Translations under genes and position numbers: made by a program
Shown: positions 1-12,298 of the stretch, piece by piece
Position numbering within the stretch: position 1 is the stretch's first letter
How the letters are laid out: every line of letters begins with the position of its first letter
The notes under the pieces: model-generated
Seen by the model: only the letters and a program-made list of their open reading frames with translations
The model's database searches: none
Told to the model about the DNA's origin: nothing
NCBI GenBank assembly: GCA_034722435.1
Contig: JAYENX010000034.1
Span: 1 to 12,298 of the forward strand
Origin: Nanobdellota archaeon
GTDB lineage: Archaea; Nanobdellota; Nanobdellia; Woesearchaeales; JAHWHD01
Length of the DNA: 12,298 nt
Direction of reading: 5' to 3'

Positions 1-586
1 ATGTATCATAAATAAAATAATCAATTAAATTCTGAACAGCATCATTATTAGTAACTGAAACACTGAACTCAGCCACACTACCATTCTCAACAGTATCAGA
101 AGTTGCAGTCTTTGTAATTGTAACATTGACTACAGAGGCATTAATCTCCTGATTTGCAAAATCAAAATCTATTTCAGCTTCAGTACTGTTCTCCAACGTA
201 ACATTGTTTGTCGTATTACCAACAGCTTTTGTTGTAAAATTAATATATATTAAAAATGATTGCGAAGTATTCAAATCAAAGAACCAACCTATCTCGTTTG
301 TAGTCATATTATAATCAGTATAATTAGGACTCACATCAGCACCATCATCAAGAAAATCAAAATACGTATCATCATATTCATCCCACACACTATAACCAGT
401 TACATTGACATCCCCAATATTTGTAACATTAATAAAAAATTCAGCAACAGTTTGATTCTCTACAGAAGGAGTTAAAGATGTTTTTGTTACAACAACATCC
501 TCCGCAGCTAATACTGCAAAACTAAAAATTGTTAATAAGAATACTAATAATATTGATACAAATAATTGATTTCCCCTTTTTGTCAT
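1..586 (-). CDS. Secreted/surface protein with tandem DUF11-like (conserved repeat domain) modules; 5' part only, runs off the window start
   Basis: Not in the ORF track; hand translation from ATG 586 gives 195 open codons: MTKRGNQLFVSILLVFLLTIFSFAVLAAEDVVVTKTSLTPSVENQTVAEFLLMLQNIGDVNVTGYSVWDEYD...VTITKTATSDTVENGSVAEFSVSVTNNDAVQNLIDYFIYDT. Signal peptide ending VLA-A; two V.KT...V...F.....N.G...v.D repeats typical of DUF11; GGAGG RBS at 595-599. Confidence 0.8.
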   Translation of the reverse strand, partial: MTKRGNQLFVSILLVFLLTIFSFAVLAAEDVVVTKTSLTPSVENQTVAEFFINVTNIGDVNVTGYSVWDEYDDTYFDFLDDGADVSPNYTDYNMTTNEIGWFFDLNTSQSFLIYINFTTKAVGNTTNNVTLENSTEAEIDFDFANQEINASVVNVTITKTATSDTVENGSVAEFSVSVTNNDAVQNLIDYFIYDT

Positions 587-594
587 GATGATCG

Positions 595-599
595 CCTCC
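595..599 (-). promoter_or_regulatory. Shine-Dalgarno site (GGAGG) of the DUF11-like gene
   Basis: GGAGG on the minus strand 8 nt upstream of ATG 586. Confidence 0.75.
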
Positions 600-627
600 G
601 TTAATGGCAACATTTAAAAAAAACCCC

Positions 628-635
628 TATATAAA
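628..635. promoter_or_regulatory. Archaeal TATA box in the divergent intergenic region (TATATAAA on +, TTTATATA on -)
   Basis: Best TATA-like element in the 77-bp gap between divergent genes; 41 nt from ATG 586 (-) and 28 nt from ATG 664 (+). Confidence 0.55.
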
Positions 636-663
636 TATTTCCATTTAAATCACAAAAAATAAA

Positions 664-1020
664 ATGAAAAACAAAAAACCCACCTATGCAATCATCGGCG
701 CATCTAACAATCCCGATAAATATGGTTACAAAATTCTTAAACATCTTAAAGAAAAAGGATACAATGTAATCCCTATAAATCTTAAAGAAAAAGAAATCCT
801 CGAGTTAAAAGTTTATCCAAAACTTTCAAAAGTAAAAGAAAAAATAGACACAGTAATTTTTGTTGTCCCATCTTCAATTACAGAAACAGTTCTAGAAGAT
901 GTTAAAGAACTAAAAATAAAAAAAGTATGGATGCAACCAGGATCAGAATCAAAAAAAGCAATCGAATTCTGCAAAAAACACAAAATAGAATGTATTTACA
1001 ATGCATGTATAATGACTTAA
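664..1020 (+). CDS. CoA-binding domain protein (YccU/COG1832-like Rossmann fold)
   Basis: Family motifs AIIGASNNPDKYGY, GYNVIPIN, IDTVIFVVP, VWMQPG, NACIM. Confidence 0.92.
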   Translation: MKNKKPTYAIIGASNNPDKYGYKILKHLKEKGYNVIPINLKEKEILELKVYPKLSKVKEKIDTVIFVVPSSITETVLEDVKELKIKKVWMQPGSESKKAIEFCKKHKIECIYNACIMT

Positions 1021-1064
1021 CAAGGTTGTAACCCCTTAACAGATACAACAAATAAGGAAATCTT

Positions 1065-1072
1065 TTTATATA
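1065..1072 (+). promoter_or_regulatory. TATA box (TTTATATA) with purine-rich BRE-like AAGGAAA upstream; probable leaderless promoter of the 318-aa gene
   Basis: TTTATATA ends 20 nt before ATG 1093; no RBS in front of the ATG. Confidence 0.6.
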
Positions 1073-1092
1073 ACCCCAATTAAAATAATTCT

Positions 1093-2049
1093 ATGAAACT
1101 AAAAAATATAGCTAATACTTTATTACTAACATCAGCTTTAGCTATACTTCCTCAGGCACAAGCAGCATTAAACATCTGTCAGCCACAATGCTACGAAGAT
1201 TCAATTGATCAAAAAATCGAATCCGTTAAATTCAATACAAAAAAAGGAAGATATGAAATAATTGCAGAAGTAAATGGTAAAAAAATATCCGAAGGGTTCT
1301 ATTATTACGAGCAAGCACTGGTCAAAGCAGGAATCGAAAATGAACAAGAACGAAATATATATCTTGAACAGATGCACAAAAAAACCATTCCAATTATCGC
1401 AAAACAAAAATTCAAAAATTCTATGACTAAACTACATTCATGGAACGGAATTAAAAAACTTGAAAGCGTTCTTGGAAAAGAAGATACTAAAAATATTTTA
1501 CCATACATAATAACTGAATCAGGAGGAGATTTAAAAATTAAAAGAACCCGTGGACACTGTTACGGAATACTACAAGTTAAATACCCCGTATATATTGACA
1601 CAATAAACTACTTTAAAAGAAATCCTAAATTAAGATCCGCCAAAAAAATAAAAAAGATAAAATGGAAAGATCTGAAAAAAAGATTAGTGGCACCACAATC
1701 AAGAATATTTCTAGGATATCAAAACAGAATCGATGAAATGTATCAGATATACACTAAAGGCAGAATGAAACAATCAGATAAACAACGTTTCAGAGACCTT
1801 GGTTGGAACCTAGGCCCTGTTGTTGTTGGAAAAACAGTTAAAGAAATACACGGTCCAAATATTAGCTATAACGAAACCAAATTCAAAATTGTCTCACCAA
1901 ATAACCTAAAACAATATTCCTCATACAAAAAGTTTTCAGATAATGAACTAATGCAAAAAAAAGCAATTTCATTAGCTTATCCAGAATTCTGCAAACAATA
2001 CAGAATTCTTCTTGAAACAATTCCTAAACAAATCGCAAAAGCTGATTAG
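1093..2049 (+). CDS. Secreted lysozyme-like protein, putative soluble lytic transglycosylase (SLT-like domain)
   Basis: Sec-type signal peptide MKLKNIANTLLLTSALAILPQAQA-A; SLT-like motifs in correct order: IITES (E142), YGILQV (158-161, cf. GLMQ), GWNLGP (237-242, cf. AYNAGP); C-terminal AYPEFCKQY loosely resembles the ET.nYv..V helix. The ORF is certain; the family call rests on motif recognition only. Confidence 0.7.
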   Translation: MKLKNIANTLLLTSALAILPQAQAALNICQPQCYEDSIDQKIESVKFNTKKGRYEIIAEVNGKKISEGFYYYEQALVKAGIENEQERNIYLEQMHKKTIPIIAKQKFKNSMTKLHSWNGIKKLESVLGKEDTKNILPYIITESGGDLKIKRTRGHCYGILQVKYPVYIDTINYFKRNPKLRSAKKIKKIKWKDLKKRLVAPQSRIFLGYQNRIDEMYQIYTKGRMKQSDKQRFRDLGWNLGPVVVGKTVKEIHGPNISYNETKFKIVSPNNLKQYSSYKKFSDNELMQKKAISLAYPEFCKQYRILLETIPKQIAKAD

Positions 2050-4496
2050 AAAAATTTACTTAACTTACTCTGATTCTTATCTTCTAAAAGTTCTTTAATA
2101 TTATACCCTAAAACATCAAAAATTCTATCCACTGCAGGAATAACCTGATTATTAATGTAATAATCTGAATCATAACCATTTTCAATAATTTCTTCAGGTA
2201 ACTTAACCCTCTCACGTACAATACCCTTACCTGGAGTAACCACAAACCGAACAAAAGTTCCAGGTCTAACATCTAAACCTTGGTCCCGCATCCTCATTGC
2301 AGCTGCGACATGTGGACCTATAGATTCATAATCAGCAATATCTTTCTGTAACTGTGTTGAAATAACCACATCTTCAACATCAATCACTTTATTCTTCAAC
2401 TCAGCTATAACATTTTTCACATAATTAAAAGCCTTGTTAGTATCATCTTCATTCAAAACAATATCAAGAACTTTTTGTTGCACTTGCTTAGCAACCTTAC
2501 TCCAGTTCCTCCTTACAGCTTCAAACCCGCGTATCTTCATAACTCCCCGTTCATCCATTAAAGCATACTTTTTCTTTGCACCTGTTGCACTCAATTTTGC
2601 AGAAACAAATATACCTGAAGGGTAAAACCCTTCAAACTCAAGCTCCATCAAATCTGGAAGCTTTTCATTAATCCCTCTTGCAAACTCTTTACTCTCCTCT
2701 TTGGTCTTATCGCCAAGTGTTAAAAAAACACTATCCGTATCAGAATAAATCACACCAAACCCTGCTTCATCAGATTTAGCAATTACATCCTTAATATAAA
2801 AACGTGCATAAGCAGTCGTACTTCTTGCAGAATCTGAAGAATACCATCTTGCACCATAAAATCCCAAATATCCATAAAAAGAATTACTCAACAACTTCAA
2901 AGCTTGTGACCGAGCTTTAAGCAGAGTAACTTTCAAAGGATCTTCAACTTTTTTAATCATCTCTTTAACCCTTAACCTTCTCGTAATTATACTTTCTAAT
3001 ATGGTAGGTATGAAACCACGCTTATTCTTACAGAACCATATCTTTGCACCCTCTAAAGGAACTAAATTTGATTCACAACATTTACAATTAATATTCTCAG
3101 GACCAATATTATGCGAAACAATTATACTAGGGTAAAGACTTCTAAAATCGTAAACAACAATATCTCTATACAATCCAGGTTTAGGCTGAAAAACAAAAGC
3201 TCCTTTAAATCTTGAAGCCCTCCTTTCTTTAACCTCTGAATATGAAGGATTGTTAGGAGCAAGCTCATTATACTCAGGCGCTTGCTTAAGTATAAACCAT
3301 TCAACCATTTGACTAAAACCCATCCCGTTAATATCAAAAGGAGTCAAACCTATCAACTTAATAAATTCTTCAATGTTCGGCATCAAACGTTCACAAAGCA
3401 TATATGTCAGACGAGAATCTTGTAAATTATATGCTGCAAAATCCCTTAACTCGTTTGAAACTGAATCCCATGCAGGTGCAAGATTTTCCATATTAACACT
3501 ATGCTTTTTCTCTCCAAGTAACTCATGCGCAACATCATCTAATTTATAAGTAGCAGTATCAAGAACCTGCCTTAAAGCACGCCGTATAAACCTACAAATA
3601 TCCAAATGTACCATACCAGTTATCCTAGCACTACTAACAGTACCTTTGCGTATTTTTACTAAAGAACCGTCCCAGCCAAAATCCAGAGGAATTTTATATT
3701 TCTCAGCACGCACCGCTATGTAAGGAAAATCAAAACCATCTGAAAAATATCCAGTAAGAATATCTGGTTTATACTGTTCAACTAAATCTTTAAACCTCTG
3801 AAGCATCTCAGCTTCGCTCTTAAGAACTTCAACATAATCCAAATCATTCTCAAACTGTTTCCATGTTAATACTTTCTTAAAATCTAAACCATAAAGACTA
3901 ATCATAACTATCGGATGTACATCAGGCAAAACAGATTTCCCGTTAGGATTATAAGTTTCAATATCAAAAGCAAGTATTTTCAAATCTTTACAAGTATTAT
4001 TATTTACATGTTCAATCTTATCAATCTTCAAAGTAATAACTTTAAAACCTTGATTTGAAACTAAACCTTCAGCCTCAGTCAAAGTCATAGGCGTCACACC
4101 TTTATCTATAAGATATCTCCGCACAAAAGGAATATCAAACTCATGAACCGATTTCACAGATTCTAAAGAACAAATATCTTTTGCAATAAGCGGAACTTGC
4201 CAAGGAAGTTGTACAAAAACTTTCAAAGCCTTAACATCTTTACCTAAAAACTTTTTATTAAATTCCTCAACCCTTACAACTTTAGCAACACCGTTTTTAT
4301 GTTCAACAGTAACTTTAGATATAACTTTAGAAGCATTCTCACAATCATCAACAATTACCCAAAAATAAGGTTCAAAACCTTCATCAATCATACAAACATG
4401 TTCACCATCTACAGCTCTACCAAAAACATGAACTACCGGTTTATCATTCAAAATCTTATATTTTATATCTAAAGGATAAAACTGAATCTTTGTCAT
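2046..4496 (-). CDS. polB: Family B DNA polymerase (archaeal PolB3 type), 816 aa, no intein
   Basis: ExoI AFDIETY (D178, E180), ExoII GYFSDGFD (D256), ExoIII YNLQD; Pol A YDFRSLYPS, Pol B KLLSNSFYGY, Pol C YSDTDS (D586, D588); KKKYA and IRGFEAVRRNWS motifs; N-terminal EFDIPFVRRYLID; C-terminal PIP box QSKLSKFF. Confidence 0.98.
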   Translation of the reverse strand: MTKIQFYPLDIKYKILNDKPVVHVFGRAVDGEHVCMIDEGFEPYFWVIVDDCENASKVISKVTVEHKNGVAKVVRVEEFNKKFLGKDVKALKVFVQLPWQVPLIAKDICSLESVKSVHEFDIPFVRRYLIDKGVTPMTLTEAEGLVSNQGFKVITLKIDKIEHVNNNTCKDLKILAFDIETYNPNGKSVLPDVHPIVMISLYGLDFKKVLTWKQFENDLDYVEVLKSEAEMLQRFKDLVEQYKPDILTGYFSDGFDFPYIAVRAEKYKIPLDFGWDGSLVKIRKGTVSSARITGMVHLDICRFIRRALRQVLDTATYKLDDVAHELLGEKKHSVNMENLAPAWDSVSNELRDFAAYNLQDSRLTYMLCERLMPNIEEFIKLIGLTPFDINGMGFSQMVEWFILKQAPEYNELAPNNPSYSEVKERRASRFKGAFVFQPKPGLYRDIVVYDFRSLYPSIIVSHNIGPENINCKCCESNLVPLEGAKIWFCKNKRGFIPTILESIITRRLRVKEMIKKVEDPLKVTLLKARSQALKLLSNSFYGYLGFYGARWYSSDSARSTTAYARFYIKDVIAKSDEAGFGVIYSDTDSVFLTLGDKTKEESKEFARGINEKLPDLMELEFEGFYPSGIFVSAKLSATGAKKKYALMDERGVMKIRGFEAVRRNWSKVAKQVQQKVLDIVLNEDDTNKAFNYVKNVIAELKNKVIDVEDVVISTQLQKDIADYESIGPHVAAAMRMRDQGLDVRPGTFVRFVVTPGKGIVRERVKLPEEIIENGYDSDYYINNQVIPAVDRIFDVLGYNIKELLEDKNQSKLSKFF

Positions 4497-4519
4497 AGTA
4501 TAATAGAATTTAGAAGCGG

Positions 4520-4527
4520 TATATAAA
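4520..4527 (-). promoter_or_regulatory. TATA box (TTTATATA) of polB, preceded by AAAAC
   Basis: 23 nt upstream of ATG 4496, inside the 45-bp gap after the PAC2 stop. Confidence 0.65.
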
Positions 4528-4541
4528 GTTTTATCATCTAA

Positions 4542-5336
4542 CTATCCAATATAATTACTATCCTTGCCAAGCCTTCGAATTTTATTCATTACAGAACGTT
4601 TTGTTGCTTCGTTAATATCATCAGTTCGTTTCAACATAGCCTGTTCAACCTCTTTAATCTCTTTCTCAAGCTGATTAAGATCAAGATCAAGTTCTAATTT
4701 ACTGTCAAGAATCTTTAATATCTGTTTCGCGCCTTTAATCCCTAAATATATAGGATGTCCAAAAGTTTCCGCTAACAAAGTAACTGCATCAATCTCTCTT
4801 TTCTTTGCAAGACCCAACAACAAACCCGATACACCCACGATCGGACCTACAACTCCATAAAGATTATCTTGTACATTAGAATCTGATTTATATTTTTTAA
4901 TTACGTCTTTACTATTACCGGTGCAATAAACTTTTGGTTTCTTAGGAATACTTTGAAGCCCTATCCCTCCCAATGTAACAAGTTCTTTCCCTCCAAATTG
5001 TTGAACCACGTCAAGAATAGTATCTGAAAATTTATAAGAACTTACTTCATCAATAGGCTGAACATCTCCCGCCAATAAAAGAAGATCGCGTTTACCCGCA
5101 CCCATCTTTTTATAATACATTTCAATCACTGGAAGCTCGATAAGATTATCTTCATTCACAAAAACAGAATGAGGAAACGTATAACTGAAAAGGTCATAAA
5201 TTTTTTTTGCTTTAAGATGGTCTATAATAAAATCAACAGCAACTTTACCAACATTACCTATACCCGGCAAACCCTCGATTAAGATAGGATCGTTAAGCTT
5301 TGGCAACCTCTTTACACTCTGACTCAATTCCCACAT
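4542..5336 (-). CDS. PAC2 family protein (proteasome assembly chaperone-like, COG2047 type)
   Basis: PILIEGLPGIGNVGKVAVD, LLLLAGDVQP, LVTLGG, IVGVSGLLLG, LLAETFG motifs; C-terminal YIG; usual position downstream of nop10. Confidence 0.93.
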   Translation of the reverse strand: MWELSQSVKRLPKLNDPILIEGLPGIGNVGKVAVDFIIDHLKAKKIYDLFSYTFPHSVFVNEDNLIELPVIEMYYKKMGAGKRDLLLLAGDVQPIDEVSSYKFSDTILDVVQQFGGKELVTLGGIGLQSIPKKPKVYCTGNSKDVIKKYKSDSNVQDNLYGVVGPIVGVSGLLLGLAKKREIDAVTLLAETFGHPIYLGIKGAKQILKILDSKLELDLDLNQLEKEIKEVEQAMLKRTDDINEATKRSVMNKIRRLGKDSNYIG

Positions 5337-5358
5337 ACTTTGTATAAAATAAACATCG

Positions 5359-5366
5359 TTTAAATA
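5359..5366 (-). promoter_or_regulatory. TATA-like box (TATTTAAA) upstream of the PAC2 gene
   Basis: 22 nt upstream of ATG 5336. Confidence 0.45.
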
Positions 5367-5448
5367 ATTTTTGAATATTAGAATACAATGTTTGAATTAT
5401 ACCATATAGAACATATAGCAAGCTTAATAAAAATCCTCATTACAAATT

Positions 5449-5454
5449 AAAAAA
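5449..5454 (-). terminator. Oligo-T tract, candidate archaeal intrinsic terminator of the rpl44e-nop10 transcript
   Basis: CCGGTTTTTT on the minus strand about 18 nt after the nop10 stop. Confidence 0.35.
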
Positions 5455-5472
5455 CCGGAAACTATTCAAAGA

Positions 5473-5652
5473 TTAAATCAAATCTTTCTTTTCTAAATCT
5501 TCAGTTCTTGCTTTTCTTCTATACTCACCATACGGATCTTCAGGAGAAAATTTAGGAGGTTTCACTTGCACAGTTATAACATCACAATCAGAACATTTAT
5601 CTTTCATTGTATACTTGCCACACTTAGGACACTTAAGAATATGTTTTGCCAT
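5473..5652 (-). CDS. nop10: H/ACA RNP component Nop10 (59 aa)
   Basis: MAKHILKCPKCGKYTMKDKCSDCDVIT...PPKFSPEDPYGEYRR: Zn-ribbon Cys pairs plus the P.FSPED.YG.YRR signature. ATG 5652 preferred over the TTG 5658 of the track, which overlaps the aIF2-alpha stop. Confidence 0.95.
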   Translation of the reverse strand: MAKHILKCPKCGKYTMKDKCSDCDVITVQVKPPKFSPEDPYGEYRRKARTEDLEKKDLI

Positions 5653-5654
5653 CT

Positions 5655-6446
5655 TCAAGCCTTTGCTTTAGTTCTTACAAAATGAACTTCTGCATCATTC
5701 TTTTCAGCATTAGAAGTTGCAGTATCTATAATAGCGTCCATAAATTTCTCAGCTTCTTTATATTCAGAACCTTTTATTATTATTTTAAATTTTCCGGCAC
5801 CAAGATACCTTATCTCAGAATCTGGACCTCCTTTCTCTGCTGCTTTAACTAAAGCATCTTTAACAATAGAAACTCCATCAAATGCATGACTTATTATAGA
5901 AATCTCGCCCGACACTTCAACTTCAGGAGGTTTTACTCTTTGCTTTACAATTTCACCAAGTTTTAAAGTAAACTCTTTATCCATACCTAATTCTTTAAGA
6001 TCAAATTCTTCCATTACATATCCAAAAAAAACATCATGTAAAGAATCAAATCTAGGAAAAACTGCTGAAGAAATTTTCTGATAAGTTGACTTTACATCTT
6101 TCTTAAACTCTTTACATACAAATTCAATAATTTTCTCAGCTTTTTGCTCTTGCTTGATAAACTCATTCTTTGCCCGTCTCTGAGATTCATTCACTCTTCT
6201 TAATGATAAATCTATATGACCTCTATCCTCATGAATCTTCAAAAGTTTACAAACAACTTTTTTACCTTCTGCAACATAATCTCTTATGTTCCGTATTCTA
6301 CCAGGAGCAACCTCCGAAATATGAATCATACCACTCATACCAGGATACTCATCAAGGTTTGCAAAAATAGAATGATGATAAATTTTAGTAACTGTGCAAA
6401 GTAAAATTTCACCTTCTCTAGGTTTACCTTGCCGCTTATATAACAT
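5655..6446 (-). CDS. eif2a: Translation initiation factor aIF2 subunit alpha
   Basis: N-terminal S1 domain with P.EGE...CTV..I, GMIHISEVAPGRIRNIRD, GHIDLSLRRV; C-terminal IRYLGAGKF; GAGGT RBS at 6457-6461. Confidence 0.97.
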   Translation of the reverse strand: MLYKRQGKPREGEILLCTVTKIYHHSIFANLDEYPGMSGMIHISEVAPGRIRNIRDYVAEGKKVVCKLLKIHEDRGHIDLSLRRVNESQRRAKNEFIKQEQKAEKIIEFVCKEFKKDVKSTYQKISSAVFPRFDSLHDVFFGYVMEEFDLKELGMDKEFTLKLGEIVKQRVKPPEVEVSGEISIISHAFDGVSIVKDALVKAAEKGGPDSEIRYLGAGKFKIIIKGSEYKEAEKFMDAIIDTATSNAEKNDAEVHFVRTKAKA

Positions 6447-6626
6447 TTATTCAAGTACCTCAAGAACTCTCGCTTTAATCTTAACCTTACCACCGGTTGG
6501 ATTAGCCAAGATTTTACCACATACAAGACACTTTACATCTGTTGAAGCCTTACCAAATGTAATCTGTTCATTCTTACATTTAGGACATCTGATTTTAACA
6601 TATTTACTTGTAGTATCTTTCGCCAT
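6447..6626 (-). CDS. rps27e: 30S ribosomal protein S27e (59 aa)
   Basis: Not in the ORF track; hand translation MAKDTTSKYVKIRCPKCKNEQITFGKASTDVKCLVCGKILANPTGGKVKIKARVLEVLE with CxxC..CxxC and PTGGK signature; GGAGGGG RBS at 6637-6643; stop abuts the aIF2-alpha ATG (TAAATG). Confidence 0.97.
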   Translation of the reverse strand: MAKDTTSKYVKIRCPKCKNEQITFGKASTDVKCLVCGKILANPTGGKVKIKARVLEVLE

Positions 6627-6636
6627 TTTAATTATA

Positions 6637-6643
6637 CCCCTCC
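6637..6643 (-). promoter_or_regulatory. Shine-Dalgarno site (GGAGGGG) of rps27e
   Basis: 10 nt upstream of ATG 6626, just after the rpl44e stop. Confidence 0.7.
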
Positions 6644-6647
6644 AAAT

Positions 6648-6962
6648 TTACTTAAGTTCAAGCTTTTTAGCTCTAAAAGTTTTTCTAGGAACTGAAGCTC
6701 TTTTACAAACAGAACATGTATAACGCAGGTCAAGATGTTTTGATGTTTTTTTACCAGTCATCTTAAAATCTTTAATAGCCGGTCTCGAACCATACCTACC
6801 GAGATTACCATGACCTTTACCAAAACCTGTTCTGAATTTTGCACCCTTTCCACCAGGGTTCGCAGTATTAGGACCTCTACGTTTTGATTGTGCCACTTTA
6901 TGCTCTGTATGTTTTTTACAGTATTTGCATAATTTTTTGACTGTTTTAGGAAGTTTTACCAT
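6648..6962 (-). CDS. rpl44e: 50S ribosomal protein L44e (eL42)
   Basis: PK....CKYCKKHTEHKV, K..K..DLRYTCSVCK, FRAKKLEL motifs; position upstream of rps27e. Confidence 0.96.
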   Translation of the reverse strand: MVKLPKTVKKLCKYCKKHTEHKVAQSKRRGPNTANPGGKGAKFRTGFGKGHGNLGRYGSRPAIKDFKMTGKKTSKHLDLRYTCSVCKRASVPRKTFRAKKLELK

Positions 6963-6985
6963 AGGATAACGAGAAAAAATTAGTG

Positions 6986-6993
6986 TTTATAAA
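6986..6993 (-). promoter_or_regulatory. TATA box (TTTATAAA) of the rpl44e operon, preceded by AAAACC
   Basis: 23 nt upstream of ATG 6962. Confidence 0.65.
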
Positions 6994-6996
6994 GGT

Positions 6997-7019
6997 TTTG
7001 GAAAAATGGCATTTCCAAA
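6997..7019. repeat. Perfect 8-bp inverted repeat TTTGGAAA-N7-TTTCCAAA
   Basis: Arms 6997-7004 and 7012-7019 read directly; lies immediately upstream of the rpl44e TATA box. Confidence 0.6.
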
Positions 7020-7024
7020 CTTAA

Positions 7025-7110
7025 AAATTAAAGATTCTATGAATTACAGAATTACACTTAATTCAAGATTTTAAACACCACGTTTATATAAATTAAAGAA
7101 TCTAAAATTA
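7025..7110. repeat. Short direct repeats in an AT-rich intergenic region
   Basis: AAATTAAAGATTCTA (7025-7039) vs AAATTAAAGAATCTA (7090-7104), 14/15 identical; tandem GAATTACA x2 (7041-7056). Confidence 0.45.
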
Positions 7111-7136
7111 ATTAATAAACTCACATTTATAAAGAT

Positions 7137-7427
7137 TTAAACCCTTTCTTTAGGTAATACCTTTATTTCATACCTAATTACATCCCCTGGCTCATAACCT
7201 TGCTCTTCTGCCATTCTTGCAAGATACAATTCATCCCTCATATTCGTAATACTTAATCTAGGGGTATTAGGAAAAATTCTAGAAGGTTTTGCATGATAAG
7301 GAACCGTAAGTTCACCTGTTCTCTCAACAACAATACTTCCATCTTCATCGCGCATTAAAGTTTCTAAAAATATTTCTCGATCTTTATCTTCTACAGATAA
7401 TTTAGTATCATTTTTTTTATCAGCCAC
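7137..7427 (-). CDS. Hypothetical protein, 96 aa
   Basis: GTG start 3 nt after the GINS stop with a GAGGTG RBS (7436-7441) 8 nt upstream; same strand and codon style as neighbours; no family recognised. Confidence 0.75.
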   Translation of the reverse strand: MADKKNDTKLSVEDKDREIFLETLMRDEDGSIVVERTGELTVPYHAKPSRIFPNTPRLSITNMRDELYLARMAEEQGYEPGDVIRYEIKVLPKERV

Positions 7428-7430
7428 TAA

Positions 7431-8096
7431 TCATACACCTCTAATCTCTTCAGCTCTCTGTTTCAAAACAAGTATATCTGCAATCTCTGCAGGAAGGTTA
7501 GCCATATCCTCTTCATCAAAAGGTCCATACACTTCTAAATCTTTACCAACAAATTTAGGAACCGCATGAATAAATCTCACCATCTTATTCCCTAAATCAG
7601 CTGAAGGCTCAGAATCACTATTCTGTACCTGAGTACCTGAAACTGACTGAGTCTCTTCACTACCAACTACCATTTTTCTTAACTCAGGAAGTTTTGCATT
7701 GATTAGATTCATAAGAACATCTTTCCTAAACTTTGAAAATAAATCGCATAATACATCATAAAACTCGCGCTCCTCTTTAAGAAGAGCAGACGTATCAATA
7801 ATATTTGAATCAGTCCTTGCTTTATTGAGAGCCATAGCAATTATTTTAGACTCTCTTTTATCATAAAGATCCTTCAACATCTTTCTGATATTTATAAGCT
7901 GTTTCTCAACCTTCATCTTTTCACTCTGAGCAAAAAGGTCATCATCAGAACCTAGAGTTATCTGCTTTTTCTCTTTAAGATAATCTATTATATCGTTATA
8001 GAAAGTATCATCTAACTTTTGCAATTCCAGCTTATTTCGTTCATTCCTAAGAAACTCAAAAATAGTTTCATAAGTAATCTTAATATCTTCTCCCAT
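7431..8096 (-). CDS. gins15: DNA replication complex GINS subunit (Gins15/Gins51 type, COG1711), about 221 aa
   Basis: A domain ITYETI...ER...LQKLDDTFY.DI.DY and Y.KRE.KI..MA, LL.EE..FY; polar linker; B domain VRFIHAVPKFVGKDLEVYGPF..EDMANLP..IA.IL. ATG 8096 preferred over TTG 8108 (GTGGGG RBS-like at 8101-8106). Confidence 0.92.
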   Translation of the reverse strand: MGEDIKITYETIFEFLRNERNKLELQKLDDTFYNDIIDYLKEKKQITLGSDDDLFAQSEKMKVEKQLINIRKMLKDLYDKRESKIIAMALNKARTDSNIIDTSALLKEEREFYDVLCDLFSKFRKDVLMNLINAKLPELRKMVVGSEETQSVSGTQVQNSDSEPSADLGNKMVRFIHAVPKFVGKDLEVYGPFDEEDMANLPAEIADILVLKQRAEEIRGV

Positions 8097-8129
8097 AATT
8101 CCCCACAAAAATAAGATAAATCATGAATA

Positions 8130-8137
8130 TTTAAATA
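8130..8137 (-). promoter_or_regulatory. TATA-like box (TATTTAAA) upstream of GINS
   Basis: 33 nt upstream of ATG 8096, leaving room for a short leader with RBS. Confidence 0.4.
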
Positions 8138-8197
8138 TTTGTATAGTTAAGATACGAGCTATTAATAAAAACAAACAGAAAACATTACTTATTCTAA

Positions 8198-9019
8198 TTA
8201 AAAAAGTCTGAAAACTCCTCTTGTTACATATATCTCAAGGAACGCCGCTAACACTATCAACACAATAGATAACAAAAACATAACTGTCGCATCCTTGATA
8301 ACATTTCTAAAAGCCAAACTTCCAATCCTTTCCCTCATCAATGCACGCGAAATTACTCCTCCAGCTATAGCAGCTAACAAAAACCCCGATATCTCAGGGA
8401 CTAAATGTATAAGCATAGTGGCAAAAATAGCTGTAGCATGTGCCGTAGTAGTAGATAAATATCTTACCAATAACACAATAAATGATGCAAAGATCGAAGC
8501 GTTATACACTATCAAAAATATAGCTCCTGCTCCATAAGCAATTGAAAGAAAAAATGCTACAACATTAACTGTAAGGTTCCTTCCAATAATATTTACAACT
8601 TGACCAATAGTACTATCCGGAACAACACTTACGCCATCAGGTGTTATTCCTCTAGCTTTCAAGAAATCAAACTGGTAAGCACTCACATCATAATTAACAT
8701 TCAAAGCAAAAAATCCAATTAATAAAAAACCAAGAAACACACCATGAAATATAAAAAGATAAGTTTCAAATACATCTTTATGATTTCTAAAAAAATGTTT
8801 AAGCCCCTCTTCGCGCTCAATTTTTTCTTCTTTTCCAAGATAATATATCAATGTAGGCACTAATAACAAAGTTGTCAAAAATATACTCGCTAGAGACATA
8901 AAATCTTTGAAAAGAAAGAAAGCTGTAATTATTCCTATCAAAGAATACGCAAAACCTAAAAGCATTGCAAAATAATGCCTCTTCTCAATTTTATGCATCA
9001 ACAATAAACGCTCAAGCAT
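8198..9019 (-). CDS. Stage II sporulation protein M (SpoIIM/DUF95) family polytopic membrane protein
   Basis: About 7-8 hydrophobic segments; I..RNL.V....F.LS..YGAGAIFLIVYNAS and H.VPEI.GF.LAA.AG, L.IVL...AAFLE.Y match the family pattern. Confidence 0.85.
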   Translation of the reverse strand: MLERLLLMHKIEKRHYFAMLLGFAYSLIGIITAFFLFKDFMSLASIFLTTLLLVPTLIYYLGKEEKIEREEGLKHFFRNHKDVFETYLFIFHGVFLGFLLIGFFALNVNYDVSAYQFDFLKARGITPDGVSVVPDSTIGQVVNIIGRNLTVNVVAFFLSIAYGAGAIFLIVYNASIFASFIVLLVRYLSTTTAHATAIFATMLIHLVPEISGFLLAAIAGGVISRALMRERIGSLAFRNVIKDATVMFLLSIVLIVLAAFLEIYVTRGVFRLF

Positions 9020-9042
9020 TCTTGCCTAAATTACCTCTTTTT

Positions 9043-9050
9043 TTTATATA
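9043..9050 (-). promoter_or_regulatory. TATA box (TATATAAA) of the SpoIIM-family gene
   Basis: 23 nt upstream of ATG 9019. Confidence 0.5.
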
Positions 9051-9059
9051 TTTCAAATT

Positions 9060-9071
9060 AAAAATAAAAAA
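9060..9071 (-). terminator. T-rich tract TTTTTTATTTTT directly after the surface-protein stop; candidate terminator
   Basis: Immediately follows TAA 9072-9074 on the minus strand. Confidence 0.4.
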
Positions 9072-11546
9072 TTAATCACCAAACTCTCTAAGGAACTTAT
9101 CTTTCTTTTTCTTATTTGACCAACCACCTAAGAAAAGCAAAGCAATAACAGTTATCACAATTATAAATATCAAAAGCGTCCTTGGATTTTTAAGGAAATC
9201 TGTAAATATTCCCCAACCTGAACCTGCTACAAGATTATCAACAACCTCTTCCTCTGGCTGCAAAACCTCGCCCCCGGAAATCTCCTCAGGAACTTGCTCA
9301 ACAAATCCAGAGTTAAGACCATCTTCAGAGTCATCATCGCCCTCAGTTACTAAACCAAAAGTATCATCTTCAGCAACAGGAAATTCCAAAACAGCAGTCT
9401 GACAAAAACCGCAATCTTTCGAACAAGTAGCACAAGTTTCTCGATTTACTTGACACACTCCGTCACCACAAGTTGCAGAAGAACCTCCACCGCCTCCACC
9501 GCTGCCACTAGTAGTTTTAATAGTGACAGCAGACGAATTACTAAAAGTCTCTCCGTTTTCATAAATATGAGCATACACAGTACCTGCACCAGTAATCCGC
9601 ACTGTAGACGAATAATAACCTACCGCATTTGAAGTAGTATTATAATCAGCTCCACCAAATGTTACATTAACTAACCTACTATCAACAGTTCCATTATCAT
9701 AATAAACATAACCGTAAGCAGTAACGTCAGTATTCGTTGTAGGGTTTGTATCGCTAAGATCTAAAGAAACTTCCATAGACAACTTAAGAGTTATTACTTT
9801 GGTAGTTGTGTTAACATTACCAGCCATATCCTCAACATCTACAGTAACAGTACAATTACCAATTTCAGTTGTTACATTACTCTGCCATGTAACTGTAAAC
9901 ACATTAGCAGAAGTATTTGTTAACACCATATCAGCAATAGTATCACCAGGACATTCAATAGTTGCATTCACTCTATTAACATCATAATTATCAGTTGCAT
10001 TCGCTGTAATAGTCACACCATCTTTCCTTAAAAAAGTATCACCCATTGTAATATCAACAGTTGGTAAAGTGTTATCGATTGTAAACACTGCATCACTTTG
10101 GTCACTTGCATTATTATGAGTATCATTCACATGCACTAAAACAAGATAAGTATCATCATTCTGAATCGTTGTAGTATCCCAGGAATAGTTCGTTATATTA
10201 ACACCAGATGACAAAACAATCCATTCAGTGATGTTCCAATAATAAAGGTTTACAATTATATCATCTGTGTTATCATCATCATAATAAACCCATTGTACTG
10301 ATTGAATTCCAGCTAAATACTCCCCACCATTAGGATAAGTAACCGTAACATTAGGTTTTTGATTATATGTAATATTAACATCAGTTATATTAATAATTCC
10401 AGATGTATCTGAATGAAATAATAAAGGAATACTATGAGCGGTATTATCATCAGGAAGAGTATCTAAAAGCTCATTTAATTCATCTGTAAAATTCTGATAG
10501 TTAAAAACATCAGTAGTATCAAATTCTCCTGAATAACCCCATTCAATATCACTGTCATTAGTTACATCTATTGTAGGATTCGTCGGATAATATTTTTTGA
10601 CTAACTGAACTTTTCTTGTTCCAGTTTCATCAGTTACTAACCATTCAAAATCATTAATATATTCTGCATCTTTAGCTGAAACTAAACCATCTGAATAAGA
10701 ATTAATAATAACGCCACTAGTTATGTTTAAAAGAATAACTTCATTACTATGCGTAATAAGCCATTTTTCTGAACTAACATATTCAACATCATAAACATCT
10801 CTGAGTGTAATTAAATCATTATATTGATTAATCACAGTGCCATCAGTCACATTAACTTCAACTATTCCAATTGAACGAGCAACAAGCCAAATTTCATCAC
10901 TAATAAATTCAGAATCATAAGTAGTTGAAGGATTTGTACTATAATTAGAAACATCCTCCATGTTAGTTACATTAATTAACCTTACAATCTTATTAGCTTG
11001 GTCAGTAACTAAAATTCGTTCATTATCAACTAAATCAGCATCAACAAAAATTGGATCAGGAATAGATCTATTAAATAATATTTTTTCAGTTGGAACTGTT
11101 TGAATATTTTCTAAAAGTATTATTTTATCATTCCCAGTATCAGTTATCAATAAAGTATCAGAATCGATATACTCGGCATCCTGAGGTCCGCTTACTGTTG
11201 AATAAGAATAATCAAGACTTCCTGAAATAGGATTAACTAGCAATAATCTATTATTATCTGTATCAGATATTAACCATTGATTACTCGAAATATACTCTGC
11301 ATCTTGAGGACTATTAAGATTCGTATAATTATAAACTAACTCCCACTCACTCAACTCACCATTAAACGTCATTGTAGAACTCAAAACATAAGCATTACCT
11401 GGCAAGGTTACATAAGTTGCAACATCGCTATTTCCATTAAAAGTTAATATGCTATCGGATAACTGAGAAATATTATCAATATAACTTAAACCAAAAACTG
11501 CACTAACCAATATCAGCATTAATACTACATATACACCCTTTTTCAT
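9072..11546 (-). CDS. Large membrane-anchored cell-surface protein (824 aa): signal peptide, six-blade NHL-like beta-propeller, Ig-like domains, Gly linker, Cys-rich motif, acidic stalk, C-terminal TM helix
   Basis: Start reassigned to ATG 11546 (MKKGVYVVLMLILVSAVFG; GAGGGTG RBS 11553-11559; TATA 11589-11596) because the 899-aa track ORF overlaps the methyltransferase. Six PQDAEY.....LI.D..N.. repeats; PNVTVTYPNGGE and DNTLPTV Ig-like starts; SGSGGGGGGSS; CGDGVCQVNRETCATCSKDCGFC; LLIFIIVITVIALLFLGGW followed by NKKKKDK. Confidence 0.88.
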   Translation of the reverse strand: MKKGVYVVLMLILVSAVFGLSYIDNISQLSDSILTFNGNSDVATYVTLPGNAYVLSSTMTFNGELSEWELVYNYTNLNSPQDAEYISSNQWLISDTDNNRLLLVNPISGSLDYSYSTVSGPQDAEYIDSDTLLITDTGNDKIILLENIQTVPTEKILFNRSIPDPIFVDADLVDNERILVTDQANKIVRLINVTNMEDVSNYSTNPSTTYDSEFISDEIWLVARSIGIVEVNVTDGTVINQYNDLITLRDVYDVEYVSSEKWLITHSNEVILLNITSGVIINSYSDGLVSAKDAEYINDFEWLVTDETGTRKVQLVKKYYPTNPTIDVTNDSDIEWGYSGEFDTTDVFNYQNFTDELNELLDTLPDDNTAHSIPLLFHSDTSGIINITDVNITYNQKPNVTVTYPNGGEYLAGIQSVQWVYYDDDNTDDIIVNLYYWNITEWIVLSSGVNITNYSWDTTTIQNDDTYLVLVHVNDTHNNASDQSDAVFTIDNTLPTVDITMGDTFLRKDGVTITANATDNYDVNRVNATIECPGDTIADMVLTNTSANVFTVTWQSNVTTEIGNCTVTVDVEDMAGNVNTTTKVITLKLSMEVSLDLSDTNPTTNTDVTAYGYVYYDNGTVDSRLVNVTFGGADYNTTSNAVGYYSSTVRITGAGTVYAHIYENGETFSNSSAVTIKTTSGSGGGGGGSSATCGDGVCQVNRETCATCSKDCGFCQTAVLEFPVAEDDTFGLVTEGDDDSEDGLNSGFVEQVPEEISGGEVLQPEEEVVDNLVAGSGWGIFTDFLKNPRTLLIFIIVITVIALLFLGGWSNKKKKDKFLREFGD
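10597..11318 (-). repeat. Six intragenic approx. 40-aa beta-propeller blade repeats
   Basis: PQDAEYISSNQWLISDTDN / PQDAEYIDSDTLLITDTGN / FVDADLVDNERILVTDQAN / TYDSEFISDEIWLVA / VYDVEYVSSEKWLIT / AKDAEYINDFEWLVTD. Blades 1 and 2 share 18/20 nt at 11290-11309 vs 11167-11186. Confidence 0.8.
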
Positions 11547-11588
11547 ATTACACACCCTCTTTATGATAAGAAAATTAATCATATCTGG

Positions 11589-11596
11589 TATATAAA
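11589..11596 (-). promoter_or_regulatory. TATA box (TTTATATA) of the large surface-protein gene
   Basis: 42 nt upstream of ATG 11546 with an RBS in the predicted leader; 5 nt past the methyltransferase stop. Confidence 0.6.
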
Positions 11597-11601
11597 CGTT
11601 T

Positions 11602-12225
11602 CTATGAATAACTCTTAAGTTTACCCAGTATACAATAATGATTATGAGCATCAATAAAAATGTCCAAAATTTTAAAATTATTAAAATATTTTTTAAGCAA
11701 AGCTTTAGTATAAATATAATGAGGCACCCCTTTTTCGGGACCATCCAACATAACATACGTTCTTGGTGCAATCAATTTAACTTTACTCGCCCTACCCTTC
11801 ATCTTATTTCGCGTCACAGTCACAAAAATAATTCCGCCAGGTTTTAACACCCTTTCAATCTCCTTTATACATTTAATTATATCCTCTAACTTCGCATGAT
11901 GAATCACTTGAACAGAAATCACAGCATCAAAAAAATTATTTTTGTAAGGAAATTCTCTATAACAACTCGCATTTTTAACTACCGCCTTAAGCTTTAACTC
12001 TTTCAACCACTTTCTTGTCTGCTTCAACCCTGATTCAGAATTATCCACCGCATAAACATCAAAACCTTCATTTGCAAGAAGTATAGTGTGCCTTCCAGAA
12101 CCAGACCCAAGATCAAGAACCGTCTTAACTCCCTCTTTCTTCATTAATTTAATAGCTTCATACACTTCTTTATGAGGTTTATAGAAAACTTTACCCTTAC
12201 TTTTAAAAATATCATCCCAAGTCAT
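11602..12225 (-). CDS. Class I SAM-dependent methyltransferase (Methyltransf_11/25-like; substrate unknown)
   Basis: Motif I VLDLGSGSGRH, VYAVDNS, PYKNNFFDAVIS..VIHH, EIERVLKPGG..F. Confidence 0.93.
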   Translation of the reverse strand: MTWDDIFKSKGKVFYKPHKEVYEAIKLMKKEGVKTVLDLGSGSGRHTILLANEGFDVYAVDNSESGLKQTRKWLKELKLKAVVKNASCYREFPYKNNFFDAVISVQVIHHAKLEDIIKCIKEIERVLKPGGIIFVTVTRNKMKGRASKVKLIAPRTYVMLDGPEKGVPHYIYTKALLKKYFNNFKILDIFIDAHNHYCILGKLKSYS

Positions 12226-12247
12226 ACAAGAATTCTTAATTATAAAA

Positions 12248-12255
12248 TATATAAA
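12248..12255 (-). promoter_or_regulatory. TATA box (TTTATATA) of the methyltransferase gene
   Basis: 22 nt upstream of ATG 12225; no RBS. Confidence 0.6.
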
Positions 12256-12298
12256 ATTATGCTTTACAAAAACTTAATTAAATATCTCACCAAAAATA

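Follow-up and report, generated by a model that had tools for sequence, protein, structure and literature searches.

The gene and its elements

The window analysed here is the whole 12,298-nucleotide stretch of a Nanobdellota archaeon of the order Woesearchaeales (assembly GCA_034722435.1, contig JAYENX010000034.1, positions 1 to 12,298, forward strand). It carries a complete open reading frame (ORF) at 1093-2049 on the plus strand, whose product of 318 aa, followed by a stop codon, is a secreted and strongly divergent SLT/GH23-like enzyme, hereafter P0001. An earlier reading made from the sequence alone had placed a signal peptide and three SLT-type motifs in this frame. The frame is indeed open and has a hydrophobic core and an AQA motif at its N-terminus, and E142 (codon 1516-1518), GILQ (158-161) and GWNLGP (237-242) all lie where they had been placed, with key residues invariant among the homologs. 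The elements of the gene are as follows, with positions in the window.

1063-1072 (+): TATA-box-like element TTTTTATATA, 21-30 nt 5' of the ATG, read directly from the sequence
1093-2049 (+): complete ORF of P0001
1093-1164 (+): Sec-type signal peptide, residues 1-24, predicted cleavage after AQA, from the sequence and its hydrophobicity profile
1165-1200 (+): low-confidence linker with CQPQC, residues 25-36
1201-1371 (+): N-terminal module, residues 37-93, built of a three-stranded beta-sheet and a short helix, followed by the first part of a long helix
1372-2034 (+): lysozyme-like (SLT/GH23-type) catalytic domain, residues 94-314
1516-1521 (+): E142-S143, the 'ES' pair of motif I, whose Glu is the putative catalytic residue, closing helix 129-143 on its C-terminal side
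1558-1560 (+): invariant C156, whose candidate disulfide partner is the likewise invariant C300 (1990-1992)
1564-1575 (+): G158-I-L-Q161, equivalent of motif II (GLMQ)
1801-1818 (+): G237-W-N-L-G-P242, equivalent of motif III (AYNxGP), with Trp replacing Tyr
1978-1980 (+): invariant Y296, counterpart of MltE Y192, the Tyr of motif IV

The GC content of the ORF region (0.29-0.30) is in line with the remainder of the contig. The position of TTTTTATATA suggests that the SLT-like gene is served by an archaeal promoter of its own and may be transcribed into a leaderless or very short-leader mRNA; no excess of sigma-70-like promoters or of terminators was seen in its region.

Homologs of P0001

When 1.84 billion representative sequences were searched exhaustively with phmmer, P0001 had a single relative, namely P0003, a hypothetical protein of 332 aa from 'Candidatus Woesearchaeota archaeon' with 32% identity. 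Word-indexed searches contributed only P0002 (67% identity), and the identity between the two branches so formed is 31-32%. The SLT-like family is therefore small and highly diverged, and its three known members all belong to Woesearchaeota-type DPANN archaea. The three sequences were combined into one alignment, A1, to which all statements on conservation below refer.

Signal peptide and N-terminal region

The N-terminus of P0001, MKLKNIANTLLLTSALAILPQAQA with A as the first residue after the predicted cut, has a basic n-region, a hydrophobic core and the AQA cleavage-type motif, and its layout MKLK-NIANTLLLTSALAIL-PQAQA shows the tripartite organisation of a Sec signal peptide. Residues 9-19 give the best 11-residue Kyte-Doolittle mean (2.26) and form the sole strongly hydrophobic stretch of the protein, with values of at most 1.18 elsewhere. 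A similar N-terminus is found in both homologs, in P0002 when counted from its internal Met42. The called start of P0002 (L003:73-1161) lies 41 codons 5' of the Met aligned to M1 of the window protein, and the additional N-terminus is probably a gene-calling artefact. The mature P0001 is strongly basic, with 58 Lys and Arg residues against 30 Asp and Glu residues.

Between the signal peptide and the catalytic domain, the sequence-only reading had described about 110 residues that matched nothing, and had singled out CQPQC. The unmatched region exists and its module has no recognisable fold match, but it comprises about 57 aa (residues 37-93), because residues 94-141 turned out to be helices of the catalytic domain. 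At the position of CQPQC the homologs have SQPAH and ENHTF, with neither cysteine conserved, and it was rejected as a motif.

Relationship to SLT domains

The search with the Pfam SLT model PF01464 (gathering cut-off 21.3 bits), by which the earlier reading was to be checked, failed outright: none of P0001, P0002 and P0003 was matched at E up to 10, and a six-frame scan of the whole source genome (1.30 Mb, 94.5% complete) gave zero matches. Pfam contained nothing relevant for P0002 and P0003. Two matches to P0001, IMP2_N (E 0.0073, below the cut-off) and phrog_22666 (E 0.16), were rejected as noise, and rows of the PDB sequence search such as UTR4 (E 0.73) and the toxin 8bgm (E 0.031, with a profile) were spurious. 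The SLT relationship is thus revealed by profile-profile and structural comparison alone.

In a six-frame search of 401 genomes from the same GTDB order, the A1 profile recovered the family itself in two genomes and gave weak matches (E 7.7e-7 to 5.6e-4) in four others, all four of which fall on domains that Pfam calls SLT at E of about 1e-16. The family was then compared by hhalign with a set of 14 SLT domains, consisting of 12 archaeal Pfam-type domains and Escherichia coli MltE and Slt70 from NC_000913. The E-value was 3.4e-11 in global mode (203 columns) and 4.2e-9 in local mode (182 columns), against 0.13 for the reversed family as control. By subgroup, the nearest relatives are woesearchaeal SLT proteins of 626-833 aa in the genomes G234, G287 and G068 (E 1.5e-9), which had been chosen because they match A1, so that this comparison is not independent; the remaining archaeal SLT domains (E 6e-4) and MltE plus Slt70 (E 1.2e-3) are more distant. 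These subgroup values point to divergence of the family within the woesearchaeal lineage. A six-frame search of the source genome with the profile of the 12 canonical archaeal domains did not find the window ORF. When the hidden Markov model (HMM) of all 14 domains was run with HMMER filters off on the 2497 ORFs of at least 80 aa in that genome, the window ORF ranked second (E 0.057), behind another protein with SLT motifs and ahead of all remaining ORFs (E >0.9).

Conserved residues of the catalytic domain

Across the three sequences of A1, the residues E142, G154, C156, G158, L160, Q161, D235, N239, G241, Y296 and C300 are invariant. E142 is followed by Ser in two members and by Thr in P0003, and both the hhalign and MAFFT alignments pair E142-S143 with E64-S65 of MltE and with the ES of Slt70; an E64Q mutant of MltE is named as inactive in the titles of PDB entries 6ghy and 4hjy. 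In the same alignments GILQ is aligned with GLMQ, GWNLGP with AYNxGP and Y296 with MltE Y192, the residue changed in the Y192F mutant of PDB entry 6ghz. GILQ lies close to the expected spacing, 19 residues after E142 (counted to Q161) as compared with about 18 for motif II of family-1 lytic transglycosylases. The motifs of P0003 (TETNG, GWLQ and AAYNGG) are nearer to the textbook SLT motifs. C156 and C300 form a candidate disulfide that, judged from their invariance, may hold the post-catalytic loop against the last helix.

Predicted structure

An AlphaFold2 (AF2) model built from the three-sequence alignment has a mean predicted local distance difference test (pLDDT) score of 75, with residues 1-36 and the loop 149-162 around C156 poorly modelled (pLDDT <50). 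The predicted model supports a lysozyme-like, mainly helical fold for residues ~94-314, nearest to family-1 lytic transglycosylases: Foldseek against the PDB ranks MltF and MltE at the top, and an ESM Atlas model of the P0001 sequence independently has SLT clusters as neighbours. Together with the hhalign and MAFFT alignments, this predicted fold supports the earlier proposal of a Sec-exported SLT-like enzyme of a DPANN archaeon with E142 as its putative single catalytic Glu. The lysozyme-like fold expected from the sequence was thus found, but at weak Foldseek E-values.

Genomic context and origin

The SLT-like gene lies among archaeal housekeeping genes, which Pfam identifies as PolB, PAC2, aIF2-alpha, L44e, S27e, Nop10 and GINS51, in agreement with the sequence-only reading. 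Its immediate neighbours encode a CoA-binding protein, PolB and PAC2, and a phage context is absent. Contigs of three different sequencing runs show the gene of P0002 adjoining polB and PAC2, in the same position as in the window. The gene of P0003 has TruD, adenylate kinase and a GatE-like gene with GatB/GAD domain as neighbours on a Woesearchaeota contig of 209 kb. Because the ortholog is syntenic beside polB on independent contigs, the gene is not a chimeric bacterial insert, a possibility that the earlier reading had allowed for; it is chromosomal, archaeal and no assembly chimera. Likewise, a recent transfer from a bacterium or phage was rejected, since neither the exhaustive phmmer search nor the word-indexed searches found such a relative, and no phage homolog reached a significant score in PHROGs or, by Foldseek, in BFVD.

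In another genome of the same genus (G092, 89% complete), the A1 search found no family member, polB and PAC2 are kept, and an Ig-like (Big_13) surface-protein gene stands downstream of polB instead of the SLT-like gene. This absence and replacement, seen in one unpublished genome, imply that the SLT-like gene is accessory and lies in a variable neighbourhood of surface-protein genes. Three further genomes, G183, G210 and G273, are also unpublished; the record of G183 and the public contig of P0003 are apparently one and the same, and the other two enter only the tally of 219 among 401 genomes given below.

Several other ORFs of the window were noted, all on the minus strand. The SLT-like gene is flanked at 2-613 by a DUF11-domain gene (E 4.6e-7), cut by the window end, which encodes a probable surface protein. 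A frame of 899 aa at 9072-11771 belongs to no Pfam or NCBIfam family. Its likely start is internal and opens with the signal peptide MKKGVYVVLMLILVSAVFG; its numerous N-x-S/T sequons, '..QDAEYI..' repeats, Cys-rich stretch and, after these, C-terminal transmembrane helix followed by KKKKDK make it look like a C-terminally anchored archaeal surface glycoprotein. Next to the GINS51 gene, positions 8198-9019 encode a membrane protein of the SpoIIM family (PF01944, E 4.9e-12), here in an archaeal genome. A 96-aa ORF at 7137-7427, located between the genes of GINS51 and L44e, is without a match in Pfam or NCBIfam.

Other candidate wall-degrading domains and distribution in the order

In the source genome, neither a Mur ligase nor a GT51 glycosyltransferase was found, which implies that the organism does not build a murein or pseudomurein of its own for the enzyme to remodel. 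The genome does contain two Peptidase_M23 domains on contig C22 (20208-20459 and 25975-26280, plus strand, loci L025 and L026; E 8.2e-16 and 9.0e-14), of which one closes an open frame of 2055 aa and the other belongs to a frame of 187 aa. A divergent SLT-like domain with the motifs HVET, GIMQV, YGYNRG and YPEKV lies C-terminally in a 795-aa protein that crosses the membrane several times (contig C58, frame from ~31315, plus strand). It is undetected by PF01464 and matches SLT domains in hhalign at E 5.7e-5. Paralogy between P0001 and this protein was considered and rejected, as they share no significant similarity (blastp E >=3, hhalign E 0.32).

PF01464 was matched in 219 of the 401 genomes sampled from the order (among those of high quality, in 162 of 281), often several times and up to six times per genome, in open frames of 118-2422 aa. 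This frequency is far above the handful of genomes in the earlier literature. In the window's own GTDB family, a PF01464-detectable SLT domain was found in none of the three genomes. Castelle et al. 2021 (PMC8204110), who cite Rinke 2013 and Castelle 2015, described proteins with lytic transglycosylase (LT) domains in Woesearchaeota and Pacearchaeota ('fam00969') and proposed that bacteria serve as hosts and that bacterial walls are bound or degraded. Vigneron et al. 2022 (PMC9723730) reported GH23 LTs in several metagenome-assembled genomes of Woesearchaeota and argued for predation on bacteria, and Strock et al. 2025 (PMC12352652) cite these studies. The idea of a bacterial partner drawn from woesearchaeal LT domains is already an established, published hypothesis of the field, and the sequence-only reading, which drew the same idea from this gene, overstated the surprise of the find.

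Proposed function and alternative explanations

Family-1 lytic transglycosylases use a single catalytic Glu to cut the bond between N-acetylmuramic acid (MurNAc) and N-acetylglucosamine (GlcNAc) in a non-hydrolytic reaction that yields 1,6-anhydro-MurNAc. We consider it likely that the gene encodes a Sec-secreted, basic, single-domain enzyme of the SLT/GH23 fold that cleaves glycan strands and is probably aimed at the peptidoglycan of neighbouring bacteria. We infer its activity, product, substrate and ecological role as follows. By analogy with family 1, E142, at the end of its helix, would serve as single acid/base on the beta-1,4 MurNAc-GlcNAc bond and leave 1,6-anhydro-MurNAc ends, with GILQ, GWNLGP and Y296 lining the cleft. 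Because genes for murein or pseudomurein synthesis are absent, foreign, bacterial peptidoglycan would be the most likely substrate. The walls of bacterial neighbours may be opened or digested for contact, predation or scavenging, with P0001 acting probably alongside the M23 endopeptidase domains and the membrane-anchored second SLT-like protein. Export, basic charge and the presence of the M23 and second SLT-like domains fit an enzyme directed at the peptidoglycan of other cells.

Several observations weigh against this reading. P0001 has no SLT match in Pfam, NCBIfam or PHROGs, even at E up to 10; the alignment behind the AF2 model contains three sequences; only one of the five AF2 models is confident, the other four having pLDDT 45-57; the low pLDDT of the loop between E142 and GILQ (149-162) lowers confidence in the predicted geometry around E142; the Foldseek E-values are 0.07 or worse; and motif III has Trp for Tyr, while Arg stands where MltE has the conserved Ser of the post-catalytic loop (S73, S75). 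The missing curated match, the three supporting sequences, the four poor models and the unmodelled catalytic loop would all be expected of an inactive or non-enzymatic lysozyme-fold protein, such as a glycan-binding adhesin, or of a spurious resemblance arising from a thin alignment and from one confident model out of five. We nevertheless rate this explanation lowest of all, since the local hhalign E of about 4e-9 contrasts with 0.13 for the reversed control, the outside matches of the family profile are true SLT domains only, the ESM Atlas model independently yields SLT neighbours, and an invariant Glu with conserved cleft motifs at 31-32% identity argues for selection on activity. A hydrolytic muramidase like goose-type lysozyme would have the same target and role, with water attacking and no anhydro product formed. 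It seems very unlikely, because family-1 LTs provide the best matches and have the motif set found here (ES, GLMQ, AYNxGP and the C-terminal Tyr), and because K150 and K163, invariant Lys residues in A1, would occupy the positions at which goose lysozyme has its accessory Asp residues.

The same fold may instead act on another substrate, a non-murein polymer containing GlcNAc (chitin or chitooligosaccharides, pseudomurein, or glycans on the surface of an archaeal host), with a role in nutrition or in attachment to an archaeal partner; we regard this as unlikely. A related proposal, which we hold to be decidedly unlikely, is that the three members represent a new subfamily of GH23, in which an altered cleft (the loop Arg, the motif III Trp and a Cys156-Cys300 staple) and the beta3-alpha module retarget the enzyme to an envelope glycan of an archaeal host or to a specific chemotype of bacterial wall. 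If so, the enzyme would serve a DPANN episymbiont specifically to open the wall of its host and would not be a generic degrader of peptidoglycan.

Under the preferred reading, that of a secreted enzyme directed at bacterial peptidoglycan, P0001 is an example of a muralytic gene missed by all curated models and recovered by structure and profile-profile comparison. The window's own GTDB family is SLT-free by Pfam, yet the source genome has two divergent SLT-like genes, which implies that surveys based on HMMs or CAZy probably undercount the peptidoglycan-degrading potential of DPANN archaea. If active, P0001 would be a muralytic enzyme of an archaeon, compact, secreted and highly basic, that would be easily expressed and could help to test the dependence of some Woesearchaeota on bacteria or their predation on them.

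Comparison with known systems

Compared with the catalytic modules of E. coli MltE (EmtA) and Pseudomonas aeruginosa MltF, P0001 has about 15% identity and lacks a Pfam match. It is a Sec-secreted archaeal protein, whereas MltE and MltF are bacterial outer-membrane lipoproteins, and it differs from both by the additional N-terminal beta/alpha module of ~57 aa, the Trp for Tyr in motif III and the invariant C156 and C300. Basic residues occupy the positions of MltE S73 and S75, and an insert of ~45 residues between motifs III and IV is absent in MltE and Slt70 and common to some archaeal SLT proteins. In contrast to SLT-type virion or lysis proteins of phages, such as gp144 of phiKZ, P0001 has neither a phage context nor a significant phage homolog.

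The closest parallel is offered by the large woesearchaeal LT proteins, which belong to the same lineage and domain superfamily, are also extracellular and have the same proposed role against bacterial walls. P0001 and the proteins of G234, G287 and G068 have in common a C-terminal '...L..(F/Y)S.Y+.(F/W)SD...' segment, and also the stretch between motifs III and IV that is missing from MltE and Slt70. The published proteins (PMC8204110, PMC9723730) are described as large, up to 3000 aa, and are detected by standard HMMs or CAZy, whereas P0001, with 318 aa, has one catalytic domain and the 57-aa module, lacks a very large multi-domain architecture and is missed by standard models. Generally, P0001 is a divergent addition, of moderate to low surprise, to enzymes that are already known and common in Woesearchaeales-type archaea.
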